From: Candidatus Udaeobacter sp.
GTDB taxonomy: Bacteria > Verrucomicrobiota > Verrucomicrobiia > Chthoniobacterales > UBA10450
Direction: 5' to 3'
DNA length: 37,008 bases
NCBI GenBank assembly: GCA_036269155.1
Contig: DATASP010000152.1
Location: 1 to 37,008, forward strand
The position numbers and the translations under genes are program-made. A model generated the notes under the pieces. That model was given only the letters and a program-made list of their open reading frames with translations. It searched no databases and was not told the DNA's origin. Below are positions 7,246 through 29,434 of the stretch, one piece after another (within the stretch, counting starts at the first letter, position 1; every line of letters begins with the position of its first letter).

Positions 7246-9312
7246 TTATCTTGGTGTCTCGCGGTACGGCACGCCGAGCCGATAAAAACCTAGCTGTTCT
7301 CCCAAGTCCGCGACTAATGCGTTGTCGCCAGACAGTCGTGCCAGCTGTATGGCGGCTTTCGCGCTTTCGATTGCCTTCCCAAATTGCCCAGTCTCCGCAT
7401 AGCCTGCTGCCAAGGTGCGCAGCACAAGGGGGTTAGTGCCACCCAACAGCTGATTAGCTTCGCCAGCAAGCCTGACTGCCTTGTTACCGTCTCGTAGGGC
7501 GTCGTTAGAACTGGTGGCCAGCAGCCACGCCAGATTAGTTAGAGCAGAAATTGACTTTGGGGAAATCTGCACGGCTTTTTCGTAATGATCAATCGCTTCG
7601 GCCGTTTCGCCTTTCTGATCCAGAGCAACAGCCAGCACCGTGTGACAATCTGCATTGTCAGGTCGGATGAACAGGGCAGCCCGACAATACTGGACGGCAG
7701 TATCGAGGTCACCTTTCTCAAGTGACGCACGGGCGAGACCGTAATGTGCGAGAAAGTAGTCGGGCCGTAATGCGATTGCCTTTTGGTAATGAACGATTGC
7801 TTCCTCAACTCGTTTTTTCTGAAGGAGAGCATCACCCAAAGAAACCTGACTATCTGGATCATTTGGCTGCATGGCCACAGCTCGATCACAATGGAGGATG
7901 GCCTCATCTACTTCGCCTTTGGCTACAAGAGCCGTGCCAAGATTGTACTCAGCGTCCCAGAAATCGGGCTGCATTTGCAGGGCCGCCCGATAATGCGCAA
8001 TTGCGTCATTTAACTGACCTTTCTGGAGAAGGACGATGCCAAGGTTCGTATGAGCCATCCAGCATTCGGGATTTTTCGCCAGTGTGGTCCGCCAAAGGGT
8101 TTCAATGTCCCCATACATTGCAGCTTGTCGCCACGTCAAAGCACCAAGGCTTGCAACCGCGAATAACGCCGCGCCCAAGATCCAGGCGCGATACCGCTTT
8201 AACATGTCGGCCAGACTAACTATGCCTGCCGAAAGGAGTGCGATTGGAGCGATACACGCCAGATACTGATAGTGGTCCGCCACAAACGTGTAGCGAAACG
8301 TGAACAGCATAATGAACCCCAGCACCGGGCTCAGTGTGGTGACGAAAAACGCGGCCGCGACCTCGACACTGCGTCCGACATATCGCCTCAGGACGTAGAT
8401 CGTCACGCACAACACGATTCCCGCCAGCAACCATGTGTAGTCCAGCAGGTGTGCCGGTGAGATATTCCATTTTGGATAGATGAAAGTCAGATTGGACGGC
8501 CAGATGAGTTTGCCCAGATAAAACCAGACAGCACGGCTGGCCACGAGTATTCGCTCTATAGGACTCAGAAACGGAAAGACCGTCCTGCTTGTACCCTGAT
8601 GATAGCGTTCCCACCAAATTGCCAGCAAACCCATGCCGATGCTCAGGATAACAAAAGGTAGGATCTGGATCAGACGCTGTTTGGTAATCGGCCTTTTCTG
8701 TAGCCAGAGAATCAAAAGCAACGCAGCTGGCAAAGTACAGGCGGTGCTTTTGGCTGAAAGCGCCAGTACGTAAAGGACTAGGGCCAGCGCATAAAAACGC
8801 CACGGCCGCTTCGTCCGCTCGTCAATAAAAGCGATCCACGCAAGCAGCGTCAGGAGAAAGAAAAGGGCCATCAGCACATTCTTGCGTTCCGTGATCCAAG
8901 CAACCGATTCAACTTGCACTGGATGCAGAGCAAAAATCGCTCCGGCAAGCCACGCGCCCGGCACATTCAGGCGCGCCAGCACCCTCCACACCAGCAGCGC
9001 GTTGGCAACGTGAAGCAGGAGGTTAACCCAATGGTAGCCGGAAGGATTGAGACCCCAAAGCGCGCGCTCGATCCGAAAGGTCGTATAAACCAGCGGAAAA
9101 TATTGAGAAGGCGAATCCAGCGAAAACCAGATTCGACGTAAGCCATCGGATGCAGTCAGCAGATCGTTTTTTGTGATGTAATCATCATCGTCCCATAGGA
9201 ACCCGCCATTCCATGCAGGTCGATACGCAAAGATCGTCACAGCCGCCAGAAGCAGGACGAAAAAAAGGGTGTGAAAATGTGCACGAAAGAGGCGTTTATC
9301 AACTGCGTGCAC
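7246..9312 (-). CDS. TMTC-like GT-C membrane glycosyltransferase homologue with C-terminal TPR array (paralogue P1, type A)
   Basis: Loop-1 acidic motif FLWDDDDYITKND. DUF1736-type block HPVQVESVAWITERKNVLMALFFLLTLLAW. About 10 TMs, then at least 5 TPRs and a shared C-terminal module. The track ORF runs to 9438, but codons 1-42 look like a relic of another gene. I therefore propose the GTG at 9312 as start (uncertain). Confidence 0.85.
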   Translation of the reverse strand: MHAVDKRLFRAHFHTLFFVLLLAAVTIFAYRPAWNGGFLWDDDDYITKNDLLTASDGLRRIWFSLDSPSQYFPLVYTTFRIERALWGLNPSGYHWVNLLLHVANALLVWRVLARLNVPGAWLAGAIFALHPVQVESVAWITERKNVLMALFFLLTLLAWIAFIDERTKRPWRFYALALVLYVLALSAKSTACTLPAALLLILWLQKRPITKQRLIQILPFVILSIGMGLLAIWWERYHQGTSRTVFPFLSPIERILVASRAVWFYLGKLIWPSNLTFIYPKWNISPAHLLDYTWLLAGIVLCVTIYVLRRYVGRSVEVAAAFFVTTLSPVLGFIMLFTFRYTFVADHYQYLACIAPIALLSAGIVSLADMLKRYRAWILGAALFAVASLGALTWRQAAMYGDIETLWRTTLAKNPECWMAHTNLGIVLLQKGQLNDAIAHYRAALQMQPDFWDAEYNLGTALVAKGEVDEAILHCDRAVAMQPNDPDSQVSLGDALLQKKRVEEAIVHYQKAIALRPDYFLAHYGLARASLEKGDLDTAVQYCRAALFIRPDNADCHTVLAVALDQKGETAEAIDHYEKAVQISPKSISALTNLAWLLATSSNDALRDGNKAVRLAGEANQLLGGTNPLVLRTLAAGYAETGQFGKAIESAKAAIQLARLSGDNALVADLGEQLGFYRLGVPYRETPR

Positions 9313-9342
9313 GACCGATCTTAGTTTAGATGCCTGTTTCCG

Positions 9343-9540
9343 CGCGACGGTGATGGAAGGGATGCCCGAGTTTACAATTTGCAGACCCAACTGTGCTATA
9401 AAAGTAAGCCGATGCTTCCTCAAATTGTCGCACTTCACTTCCTAAAATGAACGAGCCCGAGCGCAAAACGCGTTCGACTGCCGCCAGTTCTTGTCGCTGC
9501 AATTCCCCGGCTCGGATGTCATATCATTCATCCGAATCAT
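9343..9540 (-). pseudogene. Decayed N-terminal remnant of a DegT/DnrJ/EryC1/StrS (ArnB-like) sugar aminotransferase
   Basis: The ATG at 9540-9538 overlaps the SDR stop as ATGA. Three frame segments read MIRMND / YDIRAGELQRQELAAVERVLRSGSFILGSEVRQFEEASAYF / AQLGLQIVNSGIPSITVA. These match the family N-terminus (VL.SG.FILG.EV..FE..FA.Y ... VNSGT.AL.LAL), but stops and two frameshifts interrupt them. Nothing past about codon 65 remains. Confidence 0.6.
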
Positions 9541-10544
9541 GGCGTGGAATTCCAATAATGGGCGCGGTGTTTCCGATAGTATTCGAGCGTCTGGGTTAAA
9601 CCATTTCGCAACGAGACCTGCGGAGACCAGCCAAGCACATTGTCAATCTTGCTAAAGTCACCATAATAATCGCCGATGTCGATGACGTCCCGGTCGGCGG
9701 GGAATGGGACGAGTTCGTAACGTCCGCCGTGATTTAGATCAACAAGCAAGCTCGCTAATTCGTGCAAACTAATGTGCTCGCTGTGTCCTAGATTGAACAC
9801 CTCGCCTTCGGATTCCATTTGGGCCGCTGCCAGCAAGAACGCCTCCACAACATCAGCAACGAAATTAAAATCGCGCCGTTGATTTCCACTGCCGAAGACT
9901 TGAATCGGCTTGCCTTCGATGAGGTGACGAATCCAGACACCGAGAAACGTTTGACGGGCATCTTTGACACGCATGCCCGGGCCATAAGTATTTGTCAAAC
10001 GCAAGGCGCAGGTCCGGATTTTGTAAACATTGTTGTAGAGCAAATGATACCATTCTCCGGCTAGTTTATTGATGCCATTCACGTCGGTAGGATTAACAGG
10101 ATGTTTTTCGTCAACGGGCAAATACTGCGGCCGCCCATAAATCTGACGGGTGCCGGCGAAAACAATTTTCACGCCCCGATTGTGCAATCGGCAAGCTTCG
10201 AGAATGTGCAGTTGCGCTGCGGCGTTGATGTTCAAATCGGTGAGCGGATCCGTCATTGAATCGAGGTGGCTAGTCTGGCCCGCGAGGTTGAAGAGAAAGT
10301 CGCGCCCCTTGATCAGAGAGGCCATGGCGTTTTGGTCGCGTACATCCGCCGTGTTCAGTTCGACGCGATCCCGGATGTCGTGGATATTGAAGAGGTTGCC
10401 GCCATATTCCGCAATCAGGCTGTCAACCAGCATGACCTTTGCGCCCAAGTTGACGAGACGCCTGGCCAGCGAGGAACCGATGAATCCCAGACCGCCTGTG
10501 ATGAGGACATCCGATCGGGAGAAAATACTGGCGTCGAAGTGCAC
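9537..10544 (-). CDS. Extended SDR family NAD-dependent sugar epimerase/dehydratase
   Basis: Rossmann motif VLITGGLGFIGSSLARRLV. The sequence FAGTRQIYG...PVNPTDVNGINKLAGE aligns to the canonical SS..VYG...P.SPYG.SK.AGE block. I propose the GTG start at 10544 (MHFDASIFSRSDVLITGG). The track start at 10709 would overlap the divergent GT2 gene by 67 nt. Confidence 0.85.
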   Translation of the reverse strand: MHFDASIFSRSDVLITGGLGFIGSSLARRLVNLGAKVMLVDSLIAEYGGNLFNIHDIRDRVELNTADVRDQNAMASLIKGRDFLFNLAGQTSHLDSMTDPLTDLNINAAAQLHILEACRLHNRGVKIVFAGTRQIYGRPQYLPVDEKHPVNPTDVNGINKLAGEWYHLLYNNVYKIRTCALRLTNTYGPGMRVKDARQTFLGVWIRHLIEGKPIQVFGSGNQRRDFNFVADVVEAFLLAAAQMESEGEVFNLGHSEHISLHELASLLVDLNHGGRYELVPFPADRDVIDIGDYYGDFSKIDNVLGWSPQVSLRNGLTQTLEYYRKHRAHYWNSTP

Positions 10545-10642
10545 AGCAAACTGTAGGTCTCGAACAGGAAGATTTTCGATAACTTTTCGCGCTTTTTTTA
10601 CAAAAATCCGACAGAGTTGGAATAGAACCTGACAACGCCTCG

Positions 10643-11626
10643 ATGTGCGCCGAACGAACCACACCTGACCTATCGTTAGTGATTCCGGTTTACAACGGGA
10701 GTTGCACAATCGGCCCGCTTGTCGAGCGCATCACAAGGGTTTTCGCGTTCACACCTTTCCAGATCGTTTTGGTAAATGACGGTTCAGAGGATAATAGCGA
10801 AATCGTTTGCGCGAAGCTGGCTGAAAAATTTCCGCAGAGCGTGACGTTCGTCCATCTTAGTCGGAATTTTGGGGAGCACAGTGCCGTCCTCGCCGGGCTC
10901 AGCCATGCGCGCGGTCGGTATGTTGCGGTACTTGACGACGACGGCCAGAATCCGCCGGAAGAAATAGTACCGATGCTTCAAGAATTAAAGCGCAAGAACT
11001 ACGATGTTGTTTACGGTCATTACATCGACAAACAACATTCATGGTTCCGCAACGCGGGGAGCAGATTCAACGATCGTATCGCGACGTTGATGCTGCACAA
11101 ACCAAAAGACCTTTATCTCTCGAGTTTCAAGGTTATGGACCGTTTCCTGGTCGATGAAATCGTCAAGTATCGCGGTCCGTTTCCATATATCGACGGTTTG
11201 ATTTACCGAAGCACCGGCAAGATTGGGCAAATACAAGTCGACCATCGCGCCAGCATTGCCGGACCGTCACGCTACACATTTCGAAAACTCGTTCGGTTGT
11301 GGTTGAATATGTTCTTGAATTTTTCCGTCAAACCGCTGCGATTTTCCGTCTATGTCGGCCTGTTTGTAGCCTGTTTGAGCATCTTGGCGCTCGGTTTGAT
11401 TTTGATAGACAAGATTTGGATCACCCCGAACCTGACACTTGGAATTCCAACAGTGCTCGCAAGTATTGTTTTCTTTTCGGGCGTCCAGCTCATGATTCTT
11501 GGTCTCATCGGTGAGTACCTTGGCCGTCTATATCTCGATCAAACTGGCACGCCACAATACATCGTGCGCTACGTGATACGTGCCGACAACCAAGCAGACG
11601 CGTCCATTGCCGCTGGCCAACAATGA
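10643..11626 (+). CDS. GT2 polyprenyl-phosphate glycosyltransferase (ArnC/GtrB/CsbB/DPM1-like)
   Basis: Motifs: LSLVIPVYNG, VLVNDGSEDNS, RNFGEHSAVLAGL, VLDDDGQNPPEEI. It also has the two C-terminal TM helices typical of this subfamily (VYVGLFVACLSILALGLILI and IVFFSGVQLMILGLIGEYLGRLY). Confidence 0.9.
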   Translation: MCAERTTPDLSLVIPVYNGSCTIGPLVERITRVFAFTPFQIVLVNDGSEDNSEIVCAKLAEKFPQSVTFVHLSRNFGEHSAVLAGLSHARGRYVAVLDDDGQNPPEEIVPMLQELKRKNYDVVYGHYIDKQHSWFRNAGSRFNDRIATLMLHKPKDLYLSSFKVMDRFLVDEIVKYRGPFPYIDGLIYRSTGKIGQIQVDHRASIAGPSRYTFRKLVRLWLNMFLNFSVKPLRFSVYVGLFVACLSILALGLILIDKIWITPNLTLGIPTVLASIVFFSGVQLMILGLIGEYLGRLYLDQTGTPQYIVRYVIRADNQADASIAAGQQ

Positions 11627-11678: not shown

Positions 11679-12488
11679 GTGACCCGCAGGCGACAGGCAG
11701 TCTGGGCATTTTTGTGTCGCAAACGTGATCCAGTGAAGCCATCTGAATACGAAATCATGTTTCGCGTCGAGCAGACGCACTGGTGGTATCGCGCGCTGCA
11801 CCGCCTAATCTTTGATACCCTGGAAAGAGAACTGCCTGATTGGCCTGAGAAGGCAATCCTCGATGCCGGCTGCGGCACGGGTGCGATTCTGAAGCAGCTC
11901 GGGAATGAGGAAAGAAATGTCGGTGTCGATTTGGCGTCGGAAGCCATCTCGTTTTGCAACGAACGCGGTCTAAACAACGTGCGACAAGCCAACATTTGTG
12001 CGCTGCCATTCGCAAACGCCTCATTCGATGCCGTGATTTGCTCGAGCGTCCTTTACCACCAGTGGGTGAAGGACATCGCGGGCGCAGTTTGCGAGTTCTA
12101 TCGCATCCTGCGTCCGGGTGGGTTGTTGCTCGTGAACGTCCCGGCTTATGGGTTTCTGCACAGCGCCCATGACGACGCGGTGATGACCGCGCGACGGTTC
12201 AGGATAAGCGAGATTCGCGCGCTCCTGCTGGAGAATAGCTTCGCGATACGGCGATTAACCTACTGGACTACGTTGCTCTTTCCGTTCGCCGTTTTGGCCC
12301 GAACTCTAGGCTGGTCAAAAACTGGACGCGATTTCTCCAGGACGGGAGAACCACCTGGTTTCGCCGATTACTTCTTCCCGAGAATCATGGCACTTGAACG
12401 CACCTTGTTGAAAAAGCTCTCTCTTCCATTTGGCGTGGCCCTGCTGGCGGCTGCCACAAAACGAGTGGTTAGTCGTCGCCAGGATTAG
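11679..12488 (+). CDS. Class I SAM-dependent methyltransferase
   Basis: Motif I ILDAGCGTGAILKQLG and post-I VGVDLASEAISF. N-terminal YE.M...EQTHWWY block and LRPGGLLLVNVP. The start is uncertain: GTG at 11679, TTG at 11712 or GTG at 11733. Confidence 0.85.
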   Translation: MTRRRQAVWAFLCRKRDPVKPSEYEIMFRVEQTHWWYRALHRLIFDTLERELPDWPEKAILDAGCGTGAILKQLGNEERNVGVDLASEAISFCNERGLNNVRQANICALPFANASFDAVICSSVLYHQWVKDIAGAVCEFYRILRPGGLLLVNVPAYGFLHSAHDDAVMTARRFRISEIRALLLENSFAIRRLTYWTTLLFPFAVLARTLGWSKTGRDFSRTGEPPGFADYFFPRIMALERTLLKKLSLPFGVALLAAATKRVVSRRQD

Positions 12489-12515
12489 TGAAGGATTATT
12501 CTTCTTTTGTTCAAG

Positions 12516-14936
12516 ATGGGCAACAATACCCCGGCGGTGCGGCAGGTAGCTCACACGTCTGGACCGCCAACTAGTATCCTTCCTGCCTTTGGACGTTTTC
12601 TCGGTCCTTTTCTGACTGCCTTGGTTCTGCTGTTGGTCGGAGTCCTGGTATTTCACAACTTCCTCCTGGGCGATAAAGTACTCTTGTACAAAGATATCGG
12701 AGCCGATTCTATAAACGATTCGTATCCTTATTTCGTTCACCTCTCAGATTATCTTCGGCGCGAAGGCTTCCCTTCCTGGTCTTTTTATGTCGGAATGGGC
12801 CAAAGTCTTTTCTATCTTACAGGTAACTTGATCTGGGAGCCCGTTATCTGGCTGCCAAGAGAGCTGATTGCCCGAGCTCTTGTATTTCAACATTTGCTTA
12901 AGACTTTGGTAGCTGGATTGTTGTTCTTTCGTTTTCTGCAGCTACGCGGCATCAATCTGTGCGCCGCGCTAACAGGTGCGCTCTTGCTCTCTTTCTCCGC
13001 TTACATGTGCGTGGGTAGCTGCTGGATCATCAGCGCAGATGAAGTTGTAAGCTTTACGTTTCTGTTGTTCGCGGTCGAAGAAGCGATTTCTCGCAGTCGC
13101 TGGATTTACATTCCCCTTGCGGTCGCTCTTATCGGCCTGGTGACGGTATTTCATCTCTACTTGAGTGCGGTATTGCTCTCCTTGTACGTGCCGATGCGGT
13201 TGGTCGAAATATATGGTTGGAAGCCACGAGTCTTGTCCCGCGTTTCTGTTCAGCTCGCTGCGGTCGCTTTGCTGGGTATTGGTCTGGCGGCGGTTATCTG
13301 CCTTGGAAGTGCCTACTCCATTCTGAATAGTCCGCGCGGATCGGGTACGATCGCCAACTTCACTTGGGGACCAACGCCGTCCGTGTTTCAACTCGAGTCG
13401 CCTCTCTACTATGTAACAGCCGCGTTGAGACCATTTTCAACCGATATGGTCGGGACTGGAGATCAGTTTCGGGGTTGGGAAAACTATTTCGAAGCGCCGA
13501 TGATCTATTGCGGGCTGCTTCCTCTACTCATGTTGCCGCAAGCATTTATCGGGGCTACCCGTTGGCAACGCCTTCTCTGCGGTCTGTTCCTAAGTTTTAT
13601 AGTTGTTCCGATCGTGTTCCCATGGTTCCGATATCTTTTTTGGGGATTTCAGGGTGGCTATTTCAGAACGTTTGCATTGTTCTCGATTTTCGGAATTATC
13701 ACGCTAAGCATGACGGCTTTCTCGCGCTGCATGGAGCGCCGAAGCTTCGGTCTTTGGACTCTGGGCGTCAGTCTGCTTGTATTACTAGGTGTTCTCTACT
13801 TGCCGATCAACGAAATCCAGGTGCTTATTAATCATGAGCTGAGGCAGGCTGCCGCTATTTTCCTTATTCTATACGCAGCTCTGCTGATAACCGGCCAGAT
13901 CGTGAAGCGGCAAAGTATCACGGGATGGATAATTCTACTCGTGGCCGCTATTGAGGTTATTCACTTCGATCGAATAACTGTGAATCGCCCGACCGTTACA
14001 AAACAAGAATTAAATGAGCGGGTCGGCTTTAATGACAAGACGGTCGACGCCGTCCGTGACATCAAGGCGAGCGATAACAGCTTCTTTCGTATCACCAAGA
14101 CCTGGGGCTCGGGACCTGCGAAGATTCCTAGCTACAACGATGCGATGGTTTTTGGCTATTATGGCACGTTGTCTTACAGCTCTTTTAACAGTCTCAACTA
14201 TATCAAGTTCTTGCTGGCTGTGGACGCCATTTCGAGGGCCGATATCGCTGTAGATGCACAGTGGTCAAAGGGTTTGGTCGGACATCCTCTGCTCTCGACT
14301 TTCGCTTGCGAGAAGTACCTAATCGCTAAAGATGTTGTGCCATCCGATGTCCCCGAGCAGTTCGAATTTATTCGACGTTATGGCAGCATTTATCTCTTCC
14401 GCAATAAGTTGTTTCTTCCATTTGGACTCGCATTCGACCGCTACATTCCCGAAGATATATTTCTGCAACTGCCCAGCCAGGTAAAGCCGCAAGCGCTGCT
14501 GCATGCCGTCGTTCTTTCTGAGCAAAATGCCGCTCATAAACCGGAGCTTTCACAGCTATCTCTCGATGAATTAAAGCAGCAAATGAGCGAAACCTCGCTT
14601 CCAGATGCTCTTGCCGAGCGCCGAGCGGCGGCTCTAAGTATCCACTCCTTTAAACAAACACGAATCGAGGGAACCGCTCGGATCAATCAGAAGGGAATCG
14701 TCGTGTTTCAGACGCCGTTTGATGCGGGTTGGCATGCCTTCAGCGATGGCCGGGCTACACCCACGCTTAGGGTGGACGCCGGGCTGCTGGGCATCGCCCT
14801 GGAGGAGGGCGAACATAGGATAGAGCTGCGCTACCGGCCGCCCCTGCTGTATGCGGGTGCAGCCGTGACGATCCTGTCTTGCAGTGTTCTTTTCTTGAGC
14901 CTGCGGAGGTGGCCGCGGATTCGCTTACTTAATTGA
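12516..14936 (+). CDS. YfhO-family polytopic membrane protein (GT-C-type glycosyltransferase family)
   Basis: About 806 aa with many TMs. N-terminal loop GADSINDSYPYFVHLSDYLRREGFPSWSFYVGMGQ. The C-terminal extracytoplasmic domain ends in the YfhO-typical block FQTPFDAGWHAFSDGRATPTLRVDAGLLGIALEEGEHRIELRYRPP plus a final TM. ATG at 12516. Confidence 0.85.
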   Translation: MGNNTPAVRQVAHTSGPPTSILPAFGRFLGPFLTALVLLLVGVLVFHNFLLGDKVLLYKDIGADSINDSYPYFVHLSDYLRREGFPSWSFYVGMGQSLFYLTGNLIWEPVIWLPRELIARALVFQHLLKTLVAGLLFFRFLQLRGINLCAALTGALLLSFSAYMCVGSCWIISADEVVSFTFLLFAVEEAISRSRWIYIPLAVALIGLVTVFHLYLSAVLLSLYVPMRLVEIYGWKPRVLSRVSVQLAAVALLGIGLAAVICLGSAYSILNSPRGSGTIANFTWGPTPSVFQLESPLYYVTAALRPFSTDMVGTGDQFRGWENYFEAPMIYCGLLPLLMLPQAFIGATRWQRLLCGLFLSFIVVPIVFPWFRYLFWGFQGGYFRTFALFSIFGIITLSMTAFSRCMERRSFGLWTLGVSLLVLLGVLYLPINEIQVLINHELRQAAAIFLILYAALLITGQIVKRQSITGWIILLVAAIEVIHFDRITVNRPTVTKQELNERVGFNDKTVDAVRDIKASDNSFFRITKTWGSGPAKIPSYNDAMVFGYYGTLSYSSFNSLNYIKFLLAVDAISRADIAVDAQWSKGLVGHPLLSTFACEKYLIAKDVVPSDVPEQFEFIRRYGSIYLFRNKLFLPFGLAFDRYIPEDIFLQLPSQVKPQALLHAVVLSEQNAAHKPELSQLSLDELKQQMSETSLPDALAERRAAALSIHSFKQTRIEGTARINQKGIVVFQTPFDAGWHAFSDGRATPTLRVDAGLLGIALEEGEHRIELRYRPPLLYAGAAVTILSCSVLFLSLRRWPRIRLLN

Positions 14937-16800: not shown

Positions 16801-16915
16801 TTAAACGATGGTTGTCGCCTGCACCTAATTAAAAGACCCTCTCTCAAGTGCAAAGAACCGACGCAATGCAATCGCGTAGTTGCAACCTGCTATTTTTCAC
16901 ATCAATAGCCCTTCC

Positions 16916-20511: not shown

Positions 20512-22576
20512 GAGCAAGCGCCAGTTTGGCGAGCATCACAGCGGCTTACCAAGATGCGTTCGCAGTCGTCGCATAACGATTGTTATATACCTGTTTCTTA
20601 TCGCAATCAGCGTGGCCGTATTCGGCCAAACAGTCCGTTACGATTTCGTTAATTTCGACGACGACTTATACGTCTATAAGGCACCTGCGATTCAGGCCGG
20701 ATTGAGTGTAAAAGGGCTGGCGCTTGCCTTTACCAGCCCACACGCGCGCAACTGGCATCCACTGACGACCATTTCGCACATGCTGGATTGCCAGCTATAC
20801 GGTTTAAAGGCTGGGGGCCATCATGCAACCAACGTGGTGTTGCATACCATTGCAGTGCTGTTGCTCTTCCGGGTGCTGTGGCAAATGACCGGCGCAGTGT
20901 GGAAGAGTGCCACTGTCGCGGCGCTATTCGCGGTTCACCCACTCCATGTTGAATCAGTGGCATGGGTGAGCGAACGAAAAGACGTTCTAAGCGCCGTCTT
21001 TTTTTTACTCATGCTGGGGGCATACTTTCGTTACACACGCGCACGGTCTGTAACGCGTTATCTGGCGGTTGCTGTGTTATTCGTGGCCGGGCTCATGTCC
21101 AAGCCAATGCTGGTAAGCGCCCCCGTTATCCTTCTTCTTTTGGATTACTGGCCACTACGTCGCTTTGAACAACTTTCGTTAACAAAAGAGAGAGGTAAAA
21201 CCGCAAAATCCGGTGATCAATGGCGCGTAAGACGAGACCTTTTCTTAGAAAAAGTTCCCTTGCTCGCTATCGCCGCGGCTTCGTGTGTCATCACATTTAT
21301 GCTGCAGAAACGGGCTACTGGTGCGATCCCGCCGCTGCCGCTCCTCTGGCGCATGGAAAACGCGGTCGTGACTTACGTGATTTATGTCTGGAAAACATTG
21401 TGGCCGACACGCCTCGCCGTTTTTTATCCTCATCCAAACGATACCCCGACAATTTGGGAAATTCTTCTCGCGATCGGACTGCTTCTCGCAATGACTATCG
21501 CAGCAATCGTTTTCCGAAGGAAACGACCGTATCTCTTCACCGGATGGTTCTGGTATGTCGGTATGCTCGTCCCCGTAGTTGGTATCGTTCAGGTTGGAGA
21601 ACAAGGCCATGCCGACCGCTATACCTACCTTCCTCACATCGGTCTGTTTTTGCTCGCAGTGTGGCTCGTCGCTGATGTGACTGCAGTGTCCCAACGACGC
21701 TCACGGGTTGCTGTGGCATCCGCGGTAATAATCATCGTTGGCCTGGCGTGGGCTTCATTCATTCAGACTTCGTACTGGCGCAACAGCGAGACTCTTTGGA
21801 CCCATGCTCTTGCCGTGACTTCTAATAACGATGTTGCCCACAATAATCTCGGGTACCTCTGCGCCGAACGTGGAGAACTGGACAAGGCGATCTCTCACTT
21901 TGAGGCCGCGTTAAGGATTAGGTCCAAGAAGCGGGATCCGCATTACAGCGTCGGTTCAGCTTTTGTGCAAGTAAACCTCGCCGACGCTCTGGGCCGAAAA
22001 GGACAGCCAGATGAAGCCATGGTTCACTATGGGGAGGCGATAAAATTGCTACCGAATTATGCGGATGCCTATTACGACCGCGGGAACATTCTTTTTGCAG
22101 AAGACCGTGTCGATGAAGCAATGGCAGATTGGGAGAAGACTCTCCAGATACGACCTGATGACGCGGATGCCCATACCTGCCTTGGTAACGCTCTCTTGCG
22201 GCGAGGTTCGGTTAAGGAGGCGGTCGCCCACTACGAAAACGCAATAGCCTTGGCTCCTGAAGATCCCCATTCTCGCATCAACGTTGCCTGGGTGTTGGCA
22301 ACTGCTGCCGATGCGTCCATCCGTGATGGCATCAAAGCGGTTGAGTTCGCTCAGCAGGCAATGGAGCTTTCAGGGGGCAAAGATCCTAACTTCCTCCGGG
22401 CGCTCGCAGCTGCTTATGCCGAGACTGGCCGGTTCCCTGAGGCGATCACGACCGCTAAACAAGCAATACTTATAGCTACCATGCAAGGCAACTCCCGGTT
22501 CGCGAAAGTTCTTGAGGAGGACGTTGGGCTTTACCGCGACCATGTTCCGCTTCGCGCATCAAAGTCCGCCGATTAG
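20483..22576 (+). CDS. TMTC-like GT-C/TPR protein (paralogue P3, type B)
   Basis: Motifs: VFGQTVRYDFVNFDDDLYVY, NWHPLTTISHMLDCQLYGLKAGGHHATN, HPLHVESVAWVSERKDVLSAVFFLLMLGAY. TPRs and the shared C-terminal module follow. The ATG at 20483 overlaps the P2 end by 29 nt; an alternative GTG at 20504 would overlap by 8 nt. Confidence 0.85.
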   Translation: MAARRPIVNKSKRQFGEHHSGLPRCVRSRRITIVIYLFLIAISVAVFGQTVRYDFVNFDDDLYVYKAPAIQAGLSVKGLALAFTSPHARNWHPLTTISHMLDCQLYGLKAGGHHATNVVLHTIAVLLLFRVLWQMTGAVWKSATVAALFAVHPLHVESVAWVSERKDVLSAVFFLLMLGAYFRYTRARSVTRYLAVAVLFVAGLMSKPMLVSAPVILLLLDYWPLRRFEQLSLTKERGKTAKSGDQWRVRRDLFLEKVPLLAIAAASCVITFMLQKRATGAIPPLPLLWRMENAVVTYVIYVWKTLWPTRLAVFYPHPNDTPTIWEILLAIGLLLAMTIAAIVFRRKRPYLFTGWFWYVGMLVPVVGIVQVGEQGHADRYTYLPHIGLFLLAVWLVADVTAVSQRRSRVAVASAVIIIVGLAWASFIQTSYWRNSETLWTHALAVTSNNDVAHNNLGYLCAERGELDKAISHFEAALRIRSKKRDPHYSVGSAFVQVNLADALGRKGQPDEAMVHYGEAIKLLPNYADAYYDRGNILFAEDRVDEAMADWEKTLQIRPDDADAHTCLGNALLRRGSVKEAVAHYENAIALAPEDPHSRINVAWVLATAADASIRDGIKAVEFAQQAMELSGGKDPNFLRALAAAYAETGRFPEAITTAKQAILIATMQGNSRFAKVLEEDVGLYRDHVPLRASKSAD

Positions 22577-22643: not shown

Positions 22644-24923
22644 CTATCTAGCTTGCTTGTGATAAGGCTGCCCCGATTCATAGAGCGCGATCTCTCTTCG
22701 AAGGAAATCGCTTAATGCGGCGTTTCCCTGGTCATCGGCGGCTTGCAAGGCTTCATGGGCTGTCGCTTTAGCTTCCGAAAAGCGGCCAGCTTCCGCATAA
22801 GCAGCAGCCAGAATCCGCAGAGCAAGTGGCCTCTTCCCATCCGATGAGCGACTGGCCTGCTCAGCCAGGAGAACCGCTTCCGGACCGTTTCTAAGCGACG
22901 GATCCGGCGACGTCGCTAGCAGCCACGCGAGGTTACTTTGCGCGGCAACATTTTCCGGTGCGAGGGTAAGCGCCTCTTTGTATTGCCCAATCGCTTCGGC
23001 AATGCGGCCTTTCGCCAGAAGGGCGCTGCCCAAGTTTGCATGCGCGTCCGCGTTCCCCGGAAGCAACTCCAACGCTTTTTCGTAGTGTATAATAGCTTCG
23101 TCGATCCGCCCTTTGCGAAGGAGTGCGCTCGCCAGATTGTATTGCGCTTCAGCCTGATCTGGCGCTTGAGCCAGGCACATCGAATAACGGGCGATCGCGT
23201 CGTCTAGGTCGCCCGGCAGTTGCCGGACGATAAGCGCATTTGCCAAGTTGCACGCTGCGGCCGCGTAACCCGGCCAGATCGCCAACGCCTTCTGATAGTG
23301 AACAATCGCATCGTCCACGCGACCCATGCCAAAGAGCGTGACGCCAAGGTTGTTGTGCGTCTCGGGATCGGCGGGACTTATCTTCAACGCCTTTTCATAA
23401 TGCTCGATCGCATCATCAAGCTGGCCTTTCTCAACCAGACACCGGGCGAGATTGTAATGCGCTTCGGCGTAATTCGGCCGCAACGCGAAGGCCTGTCGAT
23501 AATGCTCCAACGCCTGATCGACGTCGCCCTGCTCACGCAGAATGATCCCCAGATTGTAATGCGCCATCCAGCAGCCGGGATTTTTTTGCAGTGTTGCTGT
23601 GTACAGCGTAACAAGATCATGGTAAACGGCAGTCTGGCGCCAAGTCAAAAAAACGAGCGATAGCAGAAATATCCCCGGGATTGCCGGAAGCAGAAGCGAT
23701 TTTGATCTAACCACGGCGATGTTACCGGGAAATTGTAGAGCGGCTGTGTCAGCTCGCGAAGGCTTTCGGAGTTCACCGAAACGCCCTACAGCAGTTACAA
23801 TCGCAGCACCAGCGAGTGCGAGAGGTCCCATGCTTGCCAGATATTGAAAGTGATCGCTCACAAAGGAGTAGCGGAAGAAAAAGACGTCGAAAAAGCCGAG
23901 CACCGGAAATAGCGAGACGACATAGTAAGCGGCGGCAAAGAACAGAGCACGGCCCGATTTTGCACGGATAAACCACAACGCAACCAGCCCGGCTATTGCT
24001 GCCAGCAACGGGAGATACGCAACGACTTTCGACGAATCAACGTCCCACCGTGGATATATGAAGATCAGAGGATGCGGCCACGCCAGTTTGCCGAGGTAGA
24101 ACCAAATGGCTTTACCCGCGATGATAAGGCGTTCGGGCCGGGTCTGCGCCCAATCACCTCCAATCGCACCCGCGTGAAATTTCTGTTCGAAAACCGTCCA
24201 GATGCTGGCAACTGCCGATATCAACGCAAATGGAACAAGCGCCAAAAAATCACGCCTTTGGATTCGTTCTCTTCGCCACCAGATACAAAGTGCGAGCACA
24301 ATAGGCAACATGACCGTGGACGGCTTGCTCAGAATCGCGAGCAGAAAGAAAAGCAGAGATAAAGCGATAACCAAGGAGCGGCGGTCCGTAGTCTCCCGCT
24401 GGGACGGTCGAGAAACGGCGCCGCCTTGATCCTCCCATTTCAAAAAGAAAAGGATCGAGAGCAGATAAAATACACCGGACTGCGTGTTTTTCAGTTCAGT
24501 CACCCATGCGACTGATTGCACCATGACTGGGTGTATAGCCCACAGGGCAGCTCCAAGCCACGCGCCGCGAACGTTAAGTTGCCGCAAGACCCGCCAGAGC
24601 AAAATCGCCGAAACGGCGTGCATCAACACGTTGAGGATGTGATACGGCAGCGGATTTAAGCCGACGAACTTGTGCAACGCCCAAAACGTCGTCAGGACGA
24701 GCGGATAATAGACAGCTTGCGTCGTAGTCCAGATTTCCTTCAGGCCGAGCGGGCCGACGACGCAAGGATTCTGCGTCAGATGCGATTCATCGTCCCAAAT
24801 GAAGCCGGCCCGAAATACCTGGGCGTACGCAATAAAAACGAGAGGAATGAGAAGCAGCGCCCACAACCACTCGCGTCTCCAACGGGAGACACCAATTTCA
24901 CGAACTGGCACAAATTGATTCAA
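22644..24923 (-). CDS. TMTC-like GT-C/TPR protein (paralogue P4, type A)
   Basis: Motifs: FRAGFIWDDESHLTQN, HPVMVQSVAWVTELKNTQSGVFYLLSILFF. About 7 TPRs plus the shared C-terminal module. TTG start at 24923, preceded by AAGGTGA. It lies 47 nt downstream of the His-rich TPR gene on the same strand. Confidence 0.85.
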   Translation of the reverse strand: MNQFVPVREIGVSRWRREWLWALLLIPLVFIAYAQVFRAGFIWDDESHLTQNPCVVGPLGLKEIWTTTQAVYYPLVLTTFWALHKFVGLNPLPYHILNVLMHAVSAILLWRVLRQLNVRGAWLGAALWAIHPVMVQSVAWVTELKNTQSGVFYLLSILFFLKWEDQGGAVSRPSQRETTDRRSLVIALSLLFFLLAILSKPSTVMLPIVLALCIWWRRERIQRRDFLALVPFALISAVASIWTVFEQKFHAGAIGGDWAQTRPERLIIAGKAIWFYLGKLAWPHPLIFIYPRWDVDSSKVVAYLPLLAAIAGLVALWFIRAKSGRALFFAAAYYVVSLFPVLGFFDVFFFRYSFVSDHFQYLASMGPLALAGAAIVTAVGRFGELRKPSRADTAALQFPGNIAVVRSKSLLLPAIPGIFLLSLVFLTWRQTAVYHDLVTLYTATLQKNPGCWMAHYNLGIILREQGDVDQALEHYRQAFALRPNYAEAHYNLARCLVEKGQLDDAIEHYEKALKISPADPETHNNLGVTLFGMGRVDDAIVHYQKALAIWPGYAAAACNLANALIVRQLPGDLDDAIARYSMCLAQAPDQAEAQYNLASALLRKGRIDEAIIHYEKALELLPGNADAHANLGSALLAKGRIAEAIGQYKEALTLAPENVAAQSNLAWLLATSPDPSLRNGPEAVLLAEQASRSSDGKRPLALRILAAAYAEAGRFSEAKATAHEALQAADDQGNAALSDFLRREIALYESGQPYHKQAR

Positions 24924-24970: not shown

Positions 24971-26902
24971 TCACGGAGACTGAGCGTTACTCTCTTTGGC
25001 AACGCGCAGGTTTTCCTCGGCCTCTGGAAAATCAGGATGGAGGCGTAGCGCTTCTTCGAATTGTGCAATCGCTTGGGAAACGTTGCCCTCGCGCATGAGG
25101 ACCCGTCCAAGATAATTATGCGGTTGAGCAAGTTTCGGGTTGAGATTGGATGCCTTCTGAAAATGTTCCTTTGCTTCGGATAGATCTCCGTTATCAAAAA
25201 TCAAACTTCCGAGGTCGATATGAGCATCGACCAAACGGGGATCGAGTTGCAGAGACTGGCGGTAATGCGCAATTGCTTCCTCGATTTTGCCATGTTTTTC
25301 CAGGAACGCGCCATAGCTGTAGTGAGCTTGGGCGGACTTGGGGGCGAGTCGGATGGAAGCTTCGGATTCGGCAGCCGCTTGATCGTCGTGACCGAGTTGC
25401 TCCAGAAGATAAGCATAGCCTGAGTGATACTCGGCATTGTTGGGCTCAATGCGCAACGCTTGTTCAAAATGCGTTTGCGCGTCGTCCAATTTTCCTTGCT
25501 CCATTAGGAGGCCTGCCAGATTAACGTGGCCTTTCGCTGAGCCGGGATTCAAACGGAGCGCTTCGGAAAAATGTCCGGCTGCCTCATCGGTTCGTCCAGC
25601 CTCTTGCAAAGCCGTCGCGTAATTGAAATGCGCTCGCACACTGGACGGAAGATCAGCAACGATCGCGGATAGACGCTCAAGTTTACCCTGGGCAGAACGC
25701 ACCTCAGTGAACCAAAGAGCTACAAGAGGTATTACAAAAACCGCTACCCATTTCGCGCCGTGCAAAGCCCAACTCGGCAAAAAGGCGTTTTTTGAAGGAT
25801 CAGTGGCTCCGCCGGTGATGCCGAGAGATTGTCGCGTCGACTTCTCACGAACCTTCCAAATGAAGCCGTCGTAGTAAAAATGGAGCAATGCCGACGCGGT
25901 CACCACGCCGGTTAAAATGCGCTTAACGGCATCGATGCCGACATATGATTTGGACAGGCTCAGCCCACCGTAGGCGAGCACCAAGCCTACATAAACGCCT
26001 ACGAGCGCGCCACTGCGGCGGAACACGAAACGCATAAACCCACCGATCGATCTGTCGCTCTCGACTCGTTTACGGTTATAGATCCACACCAGCGAGAGGT
26101 ACTGCACATCGTGGAACACTTCGAATAACGCGATGCCGACGAGGACGCTGGCTACGATGTTGTTGCAGTACCACCAAAAGGAAATGCTCGTGACAAGAAG
26201 CACCAGCTTGACCGGGCTCGGGCGCTTTCCTTGCGTCCACATCCAGACGAAATTCACCAGGAATACACCTGAAATGGCCAAAGCCAACGCCAGCAGCCCT
26301 TGCTGCGCTGCCCGAAGGAGTGCCGGCGGAATAAAAGGTCCTCCGGCCGCATAATAACTTTCCAAGGTATCGGTCATCCGCTGCGGCGAAAGAAGCACAG
26401 CGGTCGCAAACCAGATGCCGCACACGGCGAAATCAAGGCGTCGCGTTAGCTCCGCGAAGGAGCCAACCTTCGCGTCGTAGATGCGGCAGAACCCGTATGT
26501 TTGCATCATTCCATGCCAAACGCCCCAGACAAACGCGACAAGCACGATGCCTTTGAGGTCCCACAGAGAAAAAGCTGCGCAAACCACTACGAGGAAAACC
26601 GGTGCGAAAATGAATCGGTATCGGAAACGCTGAAACAAGGCGCGGTCACCGTAGGCGCGAATCATACCTGGCAAGTGGTGCCCCATCGCACCGAACGCGG
26701 CGACAAAAAGATAAATGTCTTCGGCCGCCCAGAGTCCCTGGGCCCCGACAAAGATGGGCACCAGCAAGAGCGGCGTACAGACGTAGAGAATCAAGTCGCG
26801 CCAACTGTCCAGAATCCACACATTAGGCTTGCGTCCAGCGGCTGCCGGACCAGGCACAGCCGGGACAGTTTGCGGAGATGAGAATGCAGAAACGTGCTGC
26901 AT
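24971..26902 (-). CDS. Uncharacterised His-rich 11-TM membrane domain fused to about 7 C-terminal TPRs
   Basis: 643 aa. The membrane domain (aa about 30-400) carries GHHLPGMIRAYGD (H75, H76), WGVWHGMMQTYG (H130), LFEVFHDVQY (E261, H264, D265) and LLHFYYDGFIWK (H341, D345). It lacks the loop-1 DD/DE and DUF1736 blocks of the neighbouring paralogues. TPRs run from about aa 420 to the end, and the shared C-terminal module is absent. Confidence 0.8.
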   Translation of the reverse strand: MQHVSAFSSPQTVPAVPGPAAAGRKPNVWILDSWRDLILYVCTPLLLVPIFVGAQGLWAAEDIYLFVAAFGAMGHHLPGMIRAYGDRALFQRFRYRFIFAPVFLVVVCAAFSLWDLKGIVLVAFVWGVWHGMMQTYGFCRIYDAKVGSFAELTRRLDFAVCGIWFATAVLLSPQRMTDTLESYYAAGGPFIPPALLRAAQQGLLALALAISGVFLVNFVWMWTQGKRPSPVKLVLLVTSISFWWYCNNIVASVLVGIALFEVFHDVQYLSLVWIYNRKRVESDRSIGGFMRFVFRRSGALVGVYVGLVLAYGGLSLSKSYVGIDAVKRILTGVVTASALLHFYYDGFIWKVREKSTRQSLGITGGATDPSKNAFLPSWALHGAKWVAVFVIPLVALWFTEVRSAQGKLERLSAIVADLPSSVRAHFNYATALQEAGRTDEAAGHFSEALRLNPGSAKGHVNLAGLLMEQGKLDDAQTHFEQALRIEPNNAEYHSGYAYLLEQLGHDDQAAAESEASIRLAPKSAQAHYSYGAFLEKHGKIEEAIAHYRQSLQLDPRLVDAHIDLGSLIFDNGDLSEAKEHFQKASNLNPKLAQPHNYLGRVLMREGNVSQAIAQFEEALRLHPDFPEAEENLRVAKESNAQSP

Positions 26903-27144: not shown

Positions 27145-27220
27145 CCGGCCGCGACCGCCTGCTGGTGATTTGATAGATCTAGTGCCGTAGGCTACACGTG
27201 GTCGATTTAGTCTTTAGGAA

Positions 27221-29434
27221 ATGGCAAAACACGTTTCTGTGCGGTCAGTCATCCCGAAGCTTGGGGTGATTTCCGGGATTTGTGCTGTCCTCGCCGCGAT
27301 TACCTGGTTGGTTTTTGGTCAAACCCTAGCGCACCAGTTCGTCACCTACGACGACCCACAGTATGTTTACGAGAATGCAAAGGTTGCCGCAGGACTCTCG
27401 CCAGAGAGCGTGCTTTGGGCCTTTACGCACACTGTAGGTGGTAACTGGCATCCGCTCACGGTCATTTCGCACATGTTGGATTGTCAGCTGTACGGTTTGA
27501 AGCCGGCCGGACACCATTTCACAAACCTTCTTTTGCATACCATCGCTGTCATCCTCCTGTTTCTCGTGCTGCGACGAATGACAGGCACTTTGTGGCAAAG
27601 CGCTTTTGTTGCGGCGTTATTCGCAATTCATCCGTTGCACGTGGAGTCGGTCGCATGGATCTCTGAGCGGAAAGACCTATTAAGCGCCGTCTTTTTCATG
27701 CTCACGCTCGGTGCTTACATCCGATATGTTCACAAGCCCTCGTTGACATCCTACATCCTTGTCCTGCTCGTGTTCGCGTTCGGCCTGATGTCGAAACCGA
27801 TGCTGGTGACCGTTCCGTTCGTTCTCCTATTGCTGGATTACTGGCCCTTAAAGCGATTCGCGCCAGAAGCTCCAGTCAAGCGTGGCCAGCAGCGTATAGT
27901 TGAAGATCGCGAGAGTATTCGACGAATTCTCCTCGAAAAAATTCCACTGCTACTTTTTTCATTTGGCTCTTGCGCGGCAACTCTTCTTGCTCAGCGCCAT
28001 TTTATCGACCCGATCGGCCATCTGTCACTGATAAACCGATTTTCTAATGCCGCTGTATCAACAGTCATTTATCTGCGACAACTCGTGTGGCCATTTGGAT
28101 TGTCCGTCTTTTACCCTCATCCGAGGCACAGCCTCTCTCTCGTACAAGTTTCGGTGGCGGCGCTGTTCCTCATCGCGGTCAGCGCAGCTGCTTTCATGTG
28201 CAGACGGAGACATCCTTATTTTTTTACGGGTTGGTTTTGGTTTTTGGGAATGCTCGTGCCGGTGAGCGGCATCATACAGGTCGGCGAGCAGGCTCACGCG
28301 GATCGCTACATGTACCTGCCTCAGATCGGTCTGTATATTCTTGTGACGTGGTTCGTTGCCGACACTGTCTCCTCGTGGCGCCATCGACGCATTCTTCTCG
28401 CCACGGCAATGGCCTCCTCGATCGCCCTCTTGGTGTACCCCGCATGGAAGCAAACCAGCTACTGGCGTGATGGCCGCGCACTTTGGACGCACGCCCTCGC
28501 GGTCGATCCACAGAACGACACGGCTCACATTAGTATTTGCGATCTTGACCTGCGCGAAAACCGCCTGGACGACGCAATTCTTCATGCACGCAAAGCATTG
28601 GAGATCCGACCCGACAGCGCCGATGCTGAGAGTCGTCTCGGTGTTGCGCTTTCAGCAAGTGGGCAAAACGAAGAGGCGAGCATCCACTTCAGAAGGGCTC
28701 TCGAGACGCATCAGATTCGTCCCCGGCTCCACTACAACCTCGCCTCATTACTTCTGAATAGTGGACATCTCGATGAGGCAATCGCTGAATTTCAGAAAGA
28801 ATTGCAAATCCAGCCGGAGTTCGTGGAAGCGCACAATAACCTCGGCATTGCGCTTAGATCAAAAGGAGAACTCGATGAGGCACTTGCTCATTTCCAGAAG
28901 GCTTTGGAGCTGGATCCGCACCTACCCAAGGTTCATCACAACATCGCCATGATCCTGTTGCGGCAGGGTCAGCTCGATCAGGCAGTCGCTCATTTACAGA
29001 AGGAGCTGCAAGTGAGTCCCGCCAGCGCGGAGGCACACAACGACCTCGGTATCGTGTGGTCGCAACAGGGCCGAATCGATCGGGCAATCAACGAATGGCA
29101 AAAGACGCTGGAGCTACAGCCAGGCAATCTAAACGCCTACTGCAATCTCGTGTGGGTGTTCGCTACATTTCCTGACGACGTGATTCGAAGCGGGGCAAAA
29201 GCAGTTGCTCTGGGCGAGCGTGCGCTGCAGCTCTCCGGCGAGAAAGATCCTCGGGTCTACCGGCTGCTTGCTGCTGCGTATGCGGAGAATCATCAATTCG
29301 ACAAGGCAATTGAGACAGCGCAGCGTGGCTCGGAGTTGGCCACGAAGCAGGGAAATTACGCGGCGGCAAACGCGCTCGAATCGAATATCGATCTTTACCG
29401 AAAGAGCCTCCCGCTGCGCGACTCGAGCGAGTAA
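27221..29434 (+). CDS. TMTC-like GT-C/TPR protein (paralogue P5, type B)
   Basis: ATG preceded by AGGAA. Motifs: VFGQTLAHQFVTYDDPQYVYEN, NWHPLTVISHMLDCQLYGLKPAGHHFTN, HPLHVESVAWISERKDLLSAVFFMLTLGAY. About 7 TPRs and the shared C-terminal module follow. Confidence 0.88.
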   Translation: MAKHVSVRSVIPKLGVISGICAVLAAITWLVFGQTLAHQFVTYDDPQYVYENAKVAAGLSPESVLWAFTHTVGGNWHPLTVISHMLDCQLYGLKPAGHHFTNLLLHTIAVILLFLVLRRMTGTLWQSAFVAALFAIHPLHVESVAWISERKDLLSAVFFMLTLGAYIRYVHKPSLTSYILVLLVFAFGLMSKPMLVTVPFVLLLLDYWPLKRFAPEAPVKRGQQRIVEDRESIRRILLEKIPLLLFSFGSCAATLLAQRHFIDPIGHLSLINRFSNAAVSTVIYLRQLVWPFGLSVFYPHPRHSLSLVQVSVAALFLIAVSAAAFMCRRRHPYFFTGWFWFLGMLVPVSGIIQVGEQAHADRYMYLPQIGLYILVTWFVADTVSSWRHRRILLATAMASSIALLVYPAWKQTSYWRDGRALWTHALAVDPQNDTAHISICDLDLRENRLDDAILHARKALEIRPDSADAESRLGVALSASGQNEEASIHFRRALETHQIRPRLHYNLASLLLNSGHLDEAIAEFQKELQIQPEFVEAHNNLGIALRSKGELDEALAHFQKALELDPHLPKVHHNIAMILLRQGQLDQAVAHLQKELQVSPASAEAHNDLGIVWSQQGRIDRAINEWQKTLELQPGNLNAYCNLVWVFATFPDDVIRSGAKAVALGERALQLSGEKDPRVYRLLAAAYAENHQFDKAIETAQRGSELATKQGNYAAANALESNIDLYRKSLPLRDSSE

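Follow-up and report, generated by a model that had tools for sequence, protein, structure and literature searches.

Gene content of the locus

The subject of this study is a cluster of membrane glycosyltransferase genes in a 37,008-nucleotide stretch of Candidatus Udaeobacter sp. (contig DATASP010000152.1 of assembly GCA_036269155.1), a stretch called the window throughout. Between positions 7246 and 29434, the open reading frame (ORF) list and translations give twelve long ORFs (Table 1). An earlier note, made from the sequence alone, had read eight of them as GT-C-type polytopic proteins lying within 22 kb, and this count stands. Five proteins (A1, A2, B1, B2 and B3), which continue into tetratricopeptide repeats (TPRs), are related to the animal TMTC enzymes by a hidden Markov model (HMM), by hhalign and through the fold predicted for B3; the YfhO, DUF2142 and PMT_2 proteins are placed as GT-C by Pfam alone. 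The parts of a lipid-linked donor pathway described in the note are also found beside the GT-C genes, i.e. an extended short-chain dehydrogenase/reductase (SDR), a GT2 glycosyltransferase and a methyltransferase (MT) dependent on S-adenosylmethionine (SAM). The profile checks proposed for PMT_2, YfhO and Glycos_transf_2 gave the matches listed in Table 1, and every non-TPR assignment is well above its Pfam cut-off.

Table 1. Features of the locus and of its flanks, with positions in the window
Feature	Position	Strand	Evidence
A1, TMTC-like GT-C + TPR protein, 730 aa, loop-1 WDDDD	7246..9438	-	TMTC HMM 6.9e-31, 97 bits; TPR Pfam matches
DegT/DnrJ/EryC1 aminotransferase 5' remnant, pseudogene, limits approximate	~9440..9540	-	tblastn with L086 DegT
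Extended SDR nucleotide-sugar enzyme, NxxxK for YxxxK	9537..10544; ORF to 10709	-	Pfam Epimerase 3e-51
GT2 polyprenyl-phosphate glycosyltransferase (predicted), ArnC/GtrB/PgfS-like, two C-terminal transmembrane (TM) helices	10643..11626	+	Glycos_transf_2 (PF00535) 3.8e-29
Class I SAM-dependent MT	11679..12488	+	Methyltransf_11 3e-21
YfhO-family GT-C protein	12507..14936	+	PF09586 7.8e-56
DUF2142 polytopic protein, GDEDLH in loop 1	15031..16551	+	PF09913 1.5e-12, 47 bits, above cut-off
PMT_2 / ArnT-like GT-C protein, ERDEGEY in loop 1	16880..18559	+	PF13231 1.6e-14
B1, TMTC-like GT-C + TPR protein, 639 aa, loop-1 YDDP	18592..20511	+	TMTC HMM 1e-22
B2, TMTC-like GT-C + TPR protein, 697 aa, loop-1 FDDD	20483..22576	+	TMTC HMM 9.7e-25
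A2, TMTC-like GT-C + TPR protein, 759 aa, loop-1 WDDES, HPVMVQSVAWVTELK	22644..24923	-	TMTC HMM 1.9e-22
Sixth TPR protein, unrelated unannotated polytopic N-domain	24971..26902	-	no Pfam/NCBIfam match
B3, TMTC-like GT-C + TPR protein, 737 aa, loop-1 YDDP	27221..29434	+	TMTC HMM 4.3e-29; PMT_2 1.2e-6
C-terminal module of A1	7246-7536	-	41-57% identity across the five
C-terminal module of A2	22644-22934	-	as above
C-terminal module of B1	~20190-20511	+	as above
C-terminal module of B2	22280-22576	+	as above
C-terminal module of B3	29144-29434	+	as above
TonB-dependent receptor, 1087 aa	29679-32942	-	
Fused MFS/spermidine-synthase protein	33378-36254	-	
Flank ORF	210-749	+	no family match
Flank ORF	957-1262	+	no family match
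Flank ORF	3483-4322	+	no family match
Flank ORF	36271-36969	-	no family match; weak NhaD antiporter-like segment

The genes from GT2 to B2 form a co-directional array of seven on the plus strand, with gaps of -29 to 328 nt; B1 starts 32 nt beyond PMT_2 and overlaps B2 by 29 nt, and SDR and A1 are divergent from the array. The SDR likely starts at a GTG at 10544, and the first 55 codons of its ORF (10545-10709), which overlap the GT2 start, are probably untranslated. Promoter and terminator scans gave counts not clearly above those of shuffled sequence and thus were not used for operon calls; they predicted no terminator in the intergenic gaps from GT2 to B2. Its best relatives in the databases come from soil Verrucomicrobiota (Candidatus Udaeobacter and Chthoniobacterales). 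Beyond A1 lie coaX, hemB, iPGM and an alkaline phosphatase gene, and relatives that share the hemB-iPGM-alkaline phosphatase locus differ there in gene content and orientation. Together with a G+C content of 0.50-0.52 over ~8000-19000 (SDR to PMT_2), compared with 0.545-0.56 in the flanks, this suggests a variable envelope-glycan locus. The whole window has no tRNA or Rfam element that could mark a mobile island.

TMTC relatives with a TPR arm

TMTC1-4 are protein O-mannosyltransferases of the animal endoplasmic reticulum (ER) that act on cadherins and protocadherins and form CAZy family GT105. TMTC enzymes are, to our knowledge, known from animals only; defects in them cause brain malformation and hearing loss. 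With the five isolated N-terminal membrane domains (N-domains) of the window, standard libraries are nearly silent: Pfam yields one marginal match, B3 to PMT_2, NCBIfam yields none, and PDB sequence searches with a single N-domain sequence or a five-sequence profile yield none. A TMTC profile was therefore built as an HMM of eight animal TMTC N-domains from a published alignment (Eisenhaber et al., 2021; PMC7801869, supplementary file). It matches all five proteins, at 70-97 bits, and none of the other seven window proteins, the YfhO, DUF2142, PMT_2 and sixth TPR proteins included. When 47 bacterial family members were aligned with the TMTCs by hhalign, the probability was 99.96% and the E-value 6.2e-38 over 378 columns, i.e. 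the whole membrane domain, which is far tighter than the best published HHpred value between TMTCs and other GT-C Pfam families (1.5e-20).

The fold points the same way. B3 was modelled with AlphaFold at full length (pLDDT 83.8) and as the N-domain only (pTM 0.82). A Foldseek search with the full-length model was dominated by TPR proteins (OGT, SPY, APC/C) and was uninformative on the membrane domain, so it was rerun with the N-domain model. All of the top 30 matches are then GT-C enzymes: STT3, AglB, PglB, Pmt4, Pmt1/2, ArnT, PIG-U, AftA, DPY19 and EmbB (6s7t at 1.3e-4, 9i5k with TMq 0.56, 5gmy, 6gxc, 6p25, 5f15, 7zlh, 6x0o). There is no TMTC structure among these matches to solved structures, and crude hydropathy is too coarse for a count of TM segments. 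Judged by profile and model, the five TPR fusions are TMTC-family GT-C enzymes in the broad sense, and they form a distinct bacterial branch.

Motifs were compared in an alignment of 129 members from 80 genome loci in many phyla. The acidic loop-1 strings quoted in the earlier note are exact in all five proteins, and their DD pair (motif M1) is retained almost throughout, D44 in 126 and D45 in 127 of the 129. A second block, HP..V(E/Q)SVAW..E(R/L)K, is indeed present in all five, and HPxxVESVAW..E.K is near-invariant across the family; its assignment to DUF1736, however, has to be revised. It aligns to TMTC1 'HPIHTEAVAGIVGRAD' (H154-D169), the M3 motif of loop EL2, whereas DUF1736 occupies TMTC1 284-358, in the loop joining TM7 to TM8. 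M3 is retained in the bacterial proteins as HPxxVESVAW..ERK(D/N) and M7 (ERxxY) as D(R/H)(Y/F)xY; the lysine of M4 (KE[T/Q]xxT) is found in 128 of 129 members, with Thr, Pro or Ser at the glutamate position. Further near-invariant positions are K192, Y284/P291/Y298 and D361/Y365. The bacterial proteins share with TMTC1-4 a GT-C domain of the 11-TM type with a TPR arm behind it, and the DD (M1), aromatic-x-PL (M2), HPxHxExV...RxD (M3), M4 lysine and (D/E)RxxYxP (M7) motifs. These are conserved residues of catalytic type. The setting differs from that of the TMTCs, being a bacterial periplasm with a carrier that is presumably undecaprenyl phosphate, compared with dolichol.

The paralogues form two subfamilies, A (A1, A2) and B (B1, B2, B3). 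N-domain identity is 40% between A1 and A2, 54-56% among the B proteins and 29-34% between subfamilies. In three related loci (L001, L005, L006), every paralogue is matched by a separate orthologue at 61-88% identity, which implies that the duplications are old and the lineages separately maintained; B1 has orthologues at 73-80% identity in these three and in L080 and L086. Tandem TMTC-like paralogues are common in Verrucomicrobiota.

What might the TPR arms do? The earlier note proposed that divergent arrays select different acceptors. The middle array, of 124-229 residues or ~4 to 7 repeats, varies mainly by repeat number, and all five proteins end in a module of ~96 residues with the consensus NLAWLLAT..RDG..AV.LAE.A..LSGG..P..L.TLAAAYAE.G.F..A...LY....P.R, to which Pfam gives weak TPR matches only. 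This module is more conserved between the A and B subfamilies than the catalytic domain, and it is an addition relative to TMTC1-4. Arrays that differ in length and share such a module weaken the proposal. The arm would be non-cytoplasmic, by homology with TMTC topology and by analogy with TfpW, the Pseudomonas aeruginosa pilin O-D-arabinofuranosyltransferase, whose C-terminal TPR domain was placed in the periplasm by reporter fusions. TfpW is a GT-C enzyme with 11 predicted TM segments, a DDx motif in periplasmic loop 1 and a proline-rich Y-x6-P in loop 4; its donor is a polyprenyl-phosphate sugar, and its targets are Ser/Thr residues of pilin. It resembles the window proteins in GT-C + TPR architecture, DDx and Y-x6-P, a likeness drawn from its published description, and it differs in that tfpW adjoins its pilin substrate and D-Araf genes, whereas the window contains no pilin gene or other obvious substrate gene. 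No functional study of bacterial TMTC, GT105 or DUF1736 homologues was found in the searchable literature, in agreement with the note's view that they are uncharacterized; TfpW, as the sole characterized GT-C-TPR analogue found there, is a studied case that qualifies this view.

The bacterial TMTC relatives are a very large family. A word-indexed search gave at least 8000 clusters (90% identity); scanning a single genome for each species gave at least 599 stretches. The best 80 loci, which are those studied, span Verrucomicrobiota, Planctomycetota, Acidobacteriota, Deltaproteobacteria, Gemmatimonadota, Spirochaetales, Latescibacterota and Binatia. Many of these proteins are named 'protein O-mannosyl-transferase' by the JGI pipeline, an automatic annotation and not a test.

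The sixth TPR protein is a different matter. Its polytopic N-domain of ~400 residues has no Pfam or NCBIfam match, nor do those of its diverse relatives, and it was rejected as a ninth GT-C protein because no HMM or hhalign relation to the TMTC-like, PMT_2, DUF2142 or YfhO proteins appeared. No other gene of the island is as well conserved (94% identity in L001). At 50% identity its family comprises 1270 clusters (398 with E<=1e-30), which are almost always TPR fusions, and many polar residues are invariant, in HHLPG, RAYGD, WH..Q.YG..RIYD, FE.FHD.QY and HFYYDGFIWK. The C-terminal module of the TMTC-like proteins also ends 3 of 20 diverse members.

Donor cassette and gene neighbourhood

The alignment of the GT2 protein with ArnC (9hwj, 2.6e-43) and GtrB (5ekp, 4e-36) extends over the complete chain and takes in the membrane hairpin at the C-terminus, where the protein has two hydrophobic segments. 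Its NCBIfam matches, ArnC at 4.8e-49 (167 bits, against a cut-off of 529) and PgfS at 8.6e-44, are both under the curated cut-offs. By homology it is a polyprenyl-phosphate glycosyltransferase. The nearest solved structures to the SDR are UDP-glucose 4-epimerases (7ys8, 4zrm) and then UDP-xylose synthases (UXS). The tyrosine of its YxxxK motif is replaced by asparagine ('DVNGINKLAGE'), as in 5/5 orthologues examined, so that the reaction cannot be inferred. The MT has generic solved relatives only, and weak matches to sugar O- and N-methyltransferases; in every relative its gene follows that of GT2, directly or after one or two genes.

Between SDR and A1 lies the remnant of a DegT aminotransferase gene. 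It reads 'MIRMNDMTSEP', then, after a frameshift, 'ELQRQELAAVERVLRSGSFILGSEVRQFEEA', which is 67% identical to residues 13-58 of the DegT protein of the related locus L086 (tblastn, E 1e-11). The first ~55 codons are left and ~300 have been deleted, and the A1 start codon beside them is retained ('VKCDNLRK', compared with 'VKTQLRK' in L086). An intact DegT gene is found in L084, L086, L087 and L089, and none in L085 and L008; L087 and L089 are short contigs from still closer relatives, where the intact gene adjoins SDR. Is the locus then decaying, its donor branch non-functional and the clustering a relic? The frameshifted remnant and the NxxxK of the SDR could be so interpreted. However, all other genes are intact ORFs with 70-89% protein identity to L086, and a cassette lacking DegT recurs in L085 and L008. 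The asparagine is common to SDR orthologues with or without DegT, which makes it a family trait rather than a sign of decay. Decay of the locus therefore seems very improbable.

Gene neighbourhoods were collected by a search with GT2 alone, which is unbiased regarding TPR genes. Five contexts are informative: the window, L008, L084, L085 and L086. A core of A1-type gene, SDR, GT2, MT and PMT_2 is present in 5/5. L086 has the layout of the window plus the aminotransferase (iPGM, alkaline phosphatase, A1-type, DegT, SDR, GT2, MT, YfhO, DUF2142, PMT_2, B1, B2), with 4-nt overlaps that join SDR, DegT and A1 as one operon. At the same chromosomal locus L084 carries a minimal version, i.e. one TPR-GT-C gene, DegT, SDR, GT2, MT and PMT_2. 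L085 and L008 keep the core and have other polytopic proteins in place of YfhO and DUF2142; YfhO occurs in L086 and is missing from L084, L085 and L008. The large replacement proteins (L008 5313-7418 and 8187-9629; L085 11298-13403 and 14194-15957) have no or weak Pfam matches (GT87, ALG6/8 ~4e-4) and may represent further divergent GT-C families.

The tie of the donor cassette to A1 and PMT_2 is well supported by these contexts. For the B-type copies and A2, a tie is suggested by adjacency and shared strand in the window and L086. The conserved core, SDR (with DegT in some relatives), ArnC-like GT2, MT, ArnT-like PMT_2 and A1-type protein, follows on sequence grounds what appears to be an Arn-like amino-sugar logic, and the window carries a variant minus the amination step.

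How close is the likeness to known systems? ArnA, ArnB, ArnC and ArnT constitute the established lipid A aminoarabinose pathway. The island likewise joins, at one locus, an SDR, a DegT protein (intact in relatives), an ArnC-like GT2 and an ArnT-like PMT_2 protein with DEG in loop 1. Unlike Arn, it has an MT and lacks formyltransferase, deformylase and ArnE/F genes (Pfam finds no formyltransferase or deformylase domain in the window), its aminotransferase is deleted and its SDR is without the catalytic tyrosine, and seven further GT-C genes are attached. A second comparison is with the streptococcal Pgf (PgfS/PgfE/PgfM1/PgfM2) and GtrB/PgtC2, which serve protein O-glycosylation, and with CsbB/GtcA/YfhO, which serves teichoic-acid glycosylation; these systems also combine a GT2 for an undecaprenyl-phosphate (Und-P)-monosaccharide, an adjoining epimerase-type SDR and a YfhO-type GT-C protein. 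In Pgf and PgtC2 the YfhO-type protein, with GT2 and epimerase, puts a sugar on protein Ser/Thr outside the cytoplasm, and the C-terminal part of the window's YfhO protein resembles PgfM2 (8e-18) and PgfM1 (2e-11). Differences are that the matches to Pgf models are far under curated cut-offs, that the host is of Gram-negative type, that the island has no GtrA/GtcA flippase gene, and that its dominant transferases are TMTC-like with TPR arms, which Pgf and Gtr lack. Of the features of such three-component systems, a GT2 with membrane hairpin is present, and GT-C proteins (PMT_2 and the A1-type) are linked to it in 5/5 contexts. PDB sequence searches with the PMT_2, YfhO and DUF2142 proteins gave no match.

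Proposed envelope glycosylation and the alternatives

The interpretation favoured here, with a probability of about 45%, is that the island is an Arn-like, lipid-carrier-dependent locus for periplasmic glycosylation. It builds on the observed family memberships, fold, motif conservation and synteny, and adds a presumed topology, carrier lipid, sugar, set of protein acceptors and common donor. At the cytoplasmic face, the atypical SDR would tailor a nucleotide sugar, with the MT probably acting at the same stage; in close relatives the DegT aminotransferase would also act on the nucleotide sugar, a step whose gene is lost in this genome. The ArnC/GtrB-like GT2 would load the monosaccharide onto undecaprenyl phosphate, and a flippase encoded elsewhere would turn the lipid-linked sugar to the periplasmic face. 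There the GT-C enzymes would transfer it by means of the loop-1 acidic motif. Among these enzymes, the A1-type TMTC-like protein and the ArnT-like PMT_2 protein have the firmest link to the donor, and the YfhO and DUF2142 proteins would be variable add-ons. The five TMTC-like paralogues would be periplasmic O-glycosyltransferases for envelope proteins, whose TPR arm, 4 to 7 repeats and the common C-terminal module, may hold the acceptor or a shared partner. Protein acceptors have precedents, by analogy, in the TMTCs, in TfpW and in the streptococcal YfhO-type PgfM1 and PgtC2.

A number of results weigh against this interpretation. In the profile check against DUF1736 (PF08409) that the earlier note proposed, none of the five N-domains matches at E<=1. 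The equivalent bacterial region has Y284-x6-P291-x6-Y298-P299 and lacks the DNPA and DW (M5) of TMTC1-4, and the glutamate of M4 is replaced by Thr, Pro or Ser. In the donor branch, the SDR is without its catalytic tyrosine, and since only a remnant of the aminotransferase is left, the pathway is either impaired or unlike the one in relatives. There is no flippase gene of the GtrA/GtcA or ArnE/F type in the island, which has no free ORF and a largest gap of 328 nt, and no acceptor or sugar is identified. Finally, four loci found via A1 (L004, L005, L006, L080) keep PMT_2, B1, B2, A2, B3 and A1, with A1 abutting PMT_2, and in the Udaeobacter-like L005, L006 and L080 there is no cassette within ~9 kb of the paralogue cluster. 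In distant phyla (Planctomycetota, Acidobacteriota and others) the TMTC-like gene is mostly solitary within 10 kb on each side, and a GT2 gene is near it in 4 of ~50 long loci. The proposal that one donor feeds several GT-C enzymes gains from the linkage of A1 and PMT_2 to the cassette, but given cassette-free clusters and solitary genes, one local donor for all eight enzymes is not established. PMT_2 is conserved in both settings, cassette and paralogue cluster.

These neighbourhoods raise a second possibility, that two separate systems lie side by side. SDR, GT2 and MT with the PMT_2, YfhO and DUF2142 proteins would be a self-contained three-component system of the Arn, Pgf or Gtr type decorating lipid A, lipopolysaccharide (LPS) or another glycan, and the TMTC-like enzymes would use a donor made elsewhere, e.g. 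a polyprenyl-phosphate hexose; their adjacency would mark a variable envelope-glycan hot spot beside hemB-iPGM-alkaline phosphatase. Paralogue clusters without a cassette (L004, L005, L006, L080), a cassette with just one TPR-GT-C gene (L084), the solitary genes of most distant genomes, island content that varies at a conserved chromosomal locus, the resemblance of GT2 and YfhO to PgfS and PgfM1/M2, and the G+C dip over 8-19 kb are all consistent with it. Yet in all GT2-anchored contexts the A1-type gene lies next to the cassette, in L086 it overlaps the DegT/SDR operon, and B1 and B2 follow PMT_2 closely on the strand of GT2. Two separate systems are accordingly regarded as a rather unlikely, though substantial, alternative.

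Might the TMTC-like enzymes be active on something other than protein? LPS core, peptidoglycan, and capsular or exopolysaccharide are candidate acceptors, with TPR arm and C-terminal module docking to envelope assembly machinery instead of choosing protein substrates. Among characterized bacterial GT-C enzymes that use an Und-P-monosaccharide, most have lipids or glycans as their targets (ArnT, Gtr, YfhO/CsbB, Emb/Aft), the conservation of the C-terminal module in all five proteins argues for a common partner, and a gene for a TonB-dependent outer-membrane protein recurs nearby. On the other hand, the closest homologues of known function, TMTC1-4, act on proteins, as do the analogous TfpW and the YfhO-type PgfM1 and PgtC2. 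Non-protein acceptors are therefore considered unlikely.

The glycosylation reading can be extended into a broader one, which is offered as speculation and is open to considerable doubt. Several bacterial phyla, Verrucomicrobiota and Planctomycetota foremost, would possess an extensive and so far unstudied family of periplasmic protein O-glycosyltransferases of the TMTC type. The island would be a multi-specificity version, where each paralogue, with a TPR arm of its own length, serves another class of envelope protein from the adjacent, originally amino-sugar, lipid-linked donor. In such enzymes, those of cadherin O-mannosylation in animals would have their counterpart among prokaryotes and perhaps their origin, and the sixth TPR family, with the same kind of TPR arm and C-terminal module, would represent a further new class of envelope-modifying enzyme.

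Every component type of the island is already known. New are the link to the TMTCs at the level of the family, a conserved genetic coupling between an Arn-like cassette and one lineage of paralogues, and the multi-paralogue island, which varies from strain to strain. The bacterial family offers tractable models for TMTC mechanism and structure, and the island suggests that envelope glycosylation has a layer still to be explored in the abundant, poorly known Udaeobacter-like Verrucomicrobiota of soil. The locus is also a natural experiment, as the B-type paralogues, the YfhO/DUF2142 pair and the aminotransferase are each carried by some relatives and not by others.

Some minor features of the flanks are also listed in Table 1. 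Four ORFs have no family match, and the rightmost of these shows a weak NhaD antiporter-like segment. On the B3 side the island is followed by a TonB-dependent receptor gene and a fused MFS/spermidine-synthase gene, and both recur beside TPR-GT-C genes in Chthoniobacterales (L001, L007, L010, L044, L080, L084, L085). A functional tie of these two proteins to the TPR-GT-C genes, e.g. as outer-membrane acceptor or partner, is possible.

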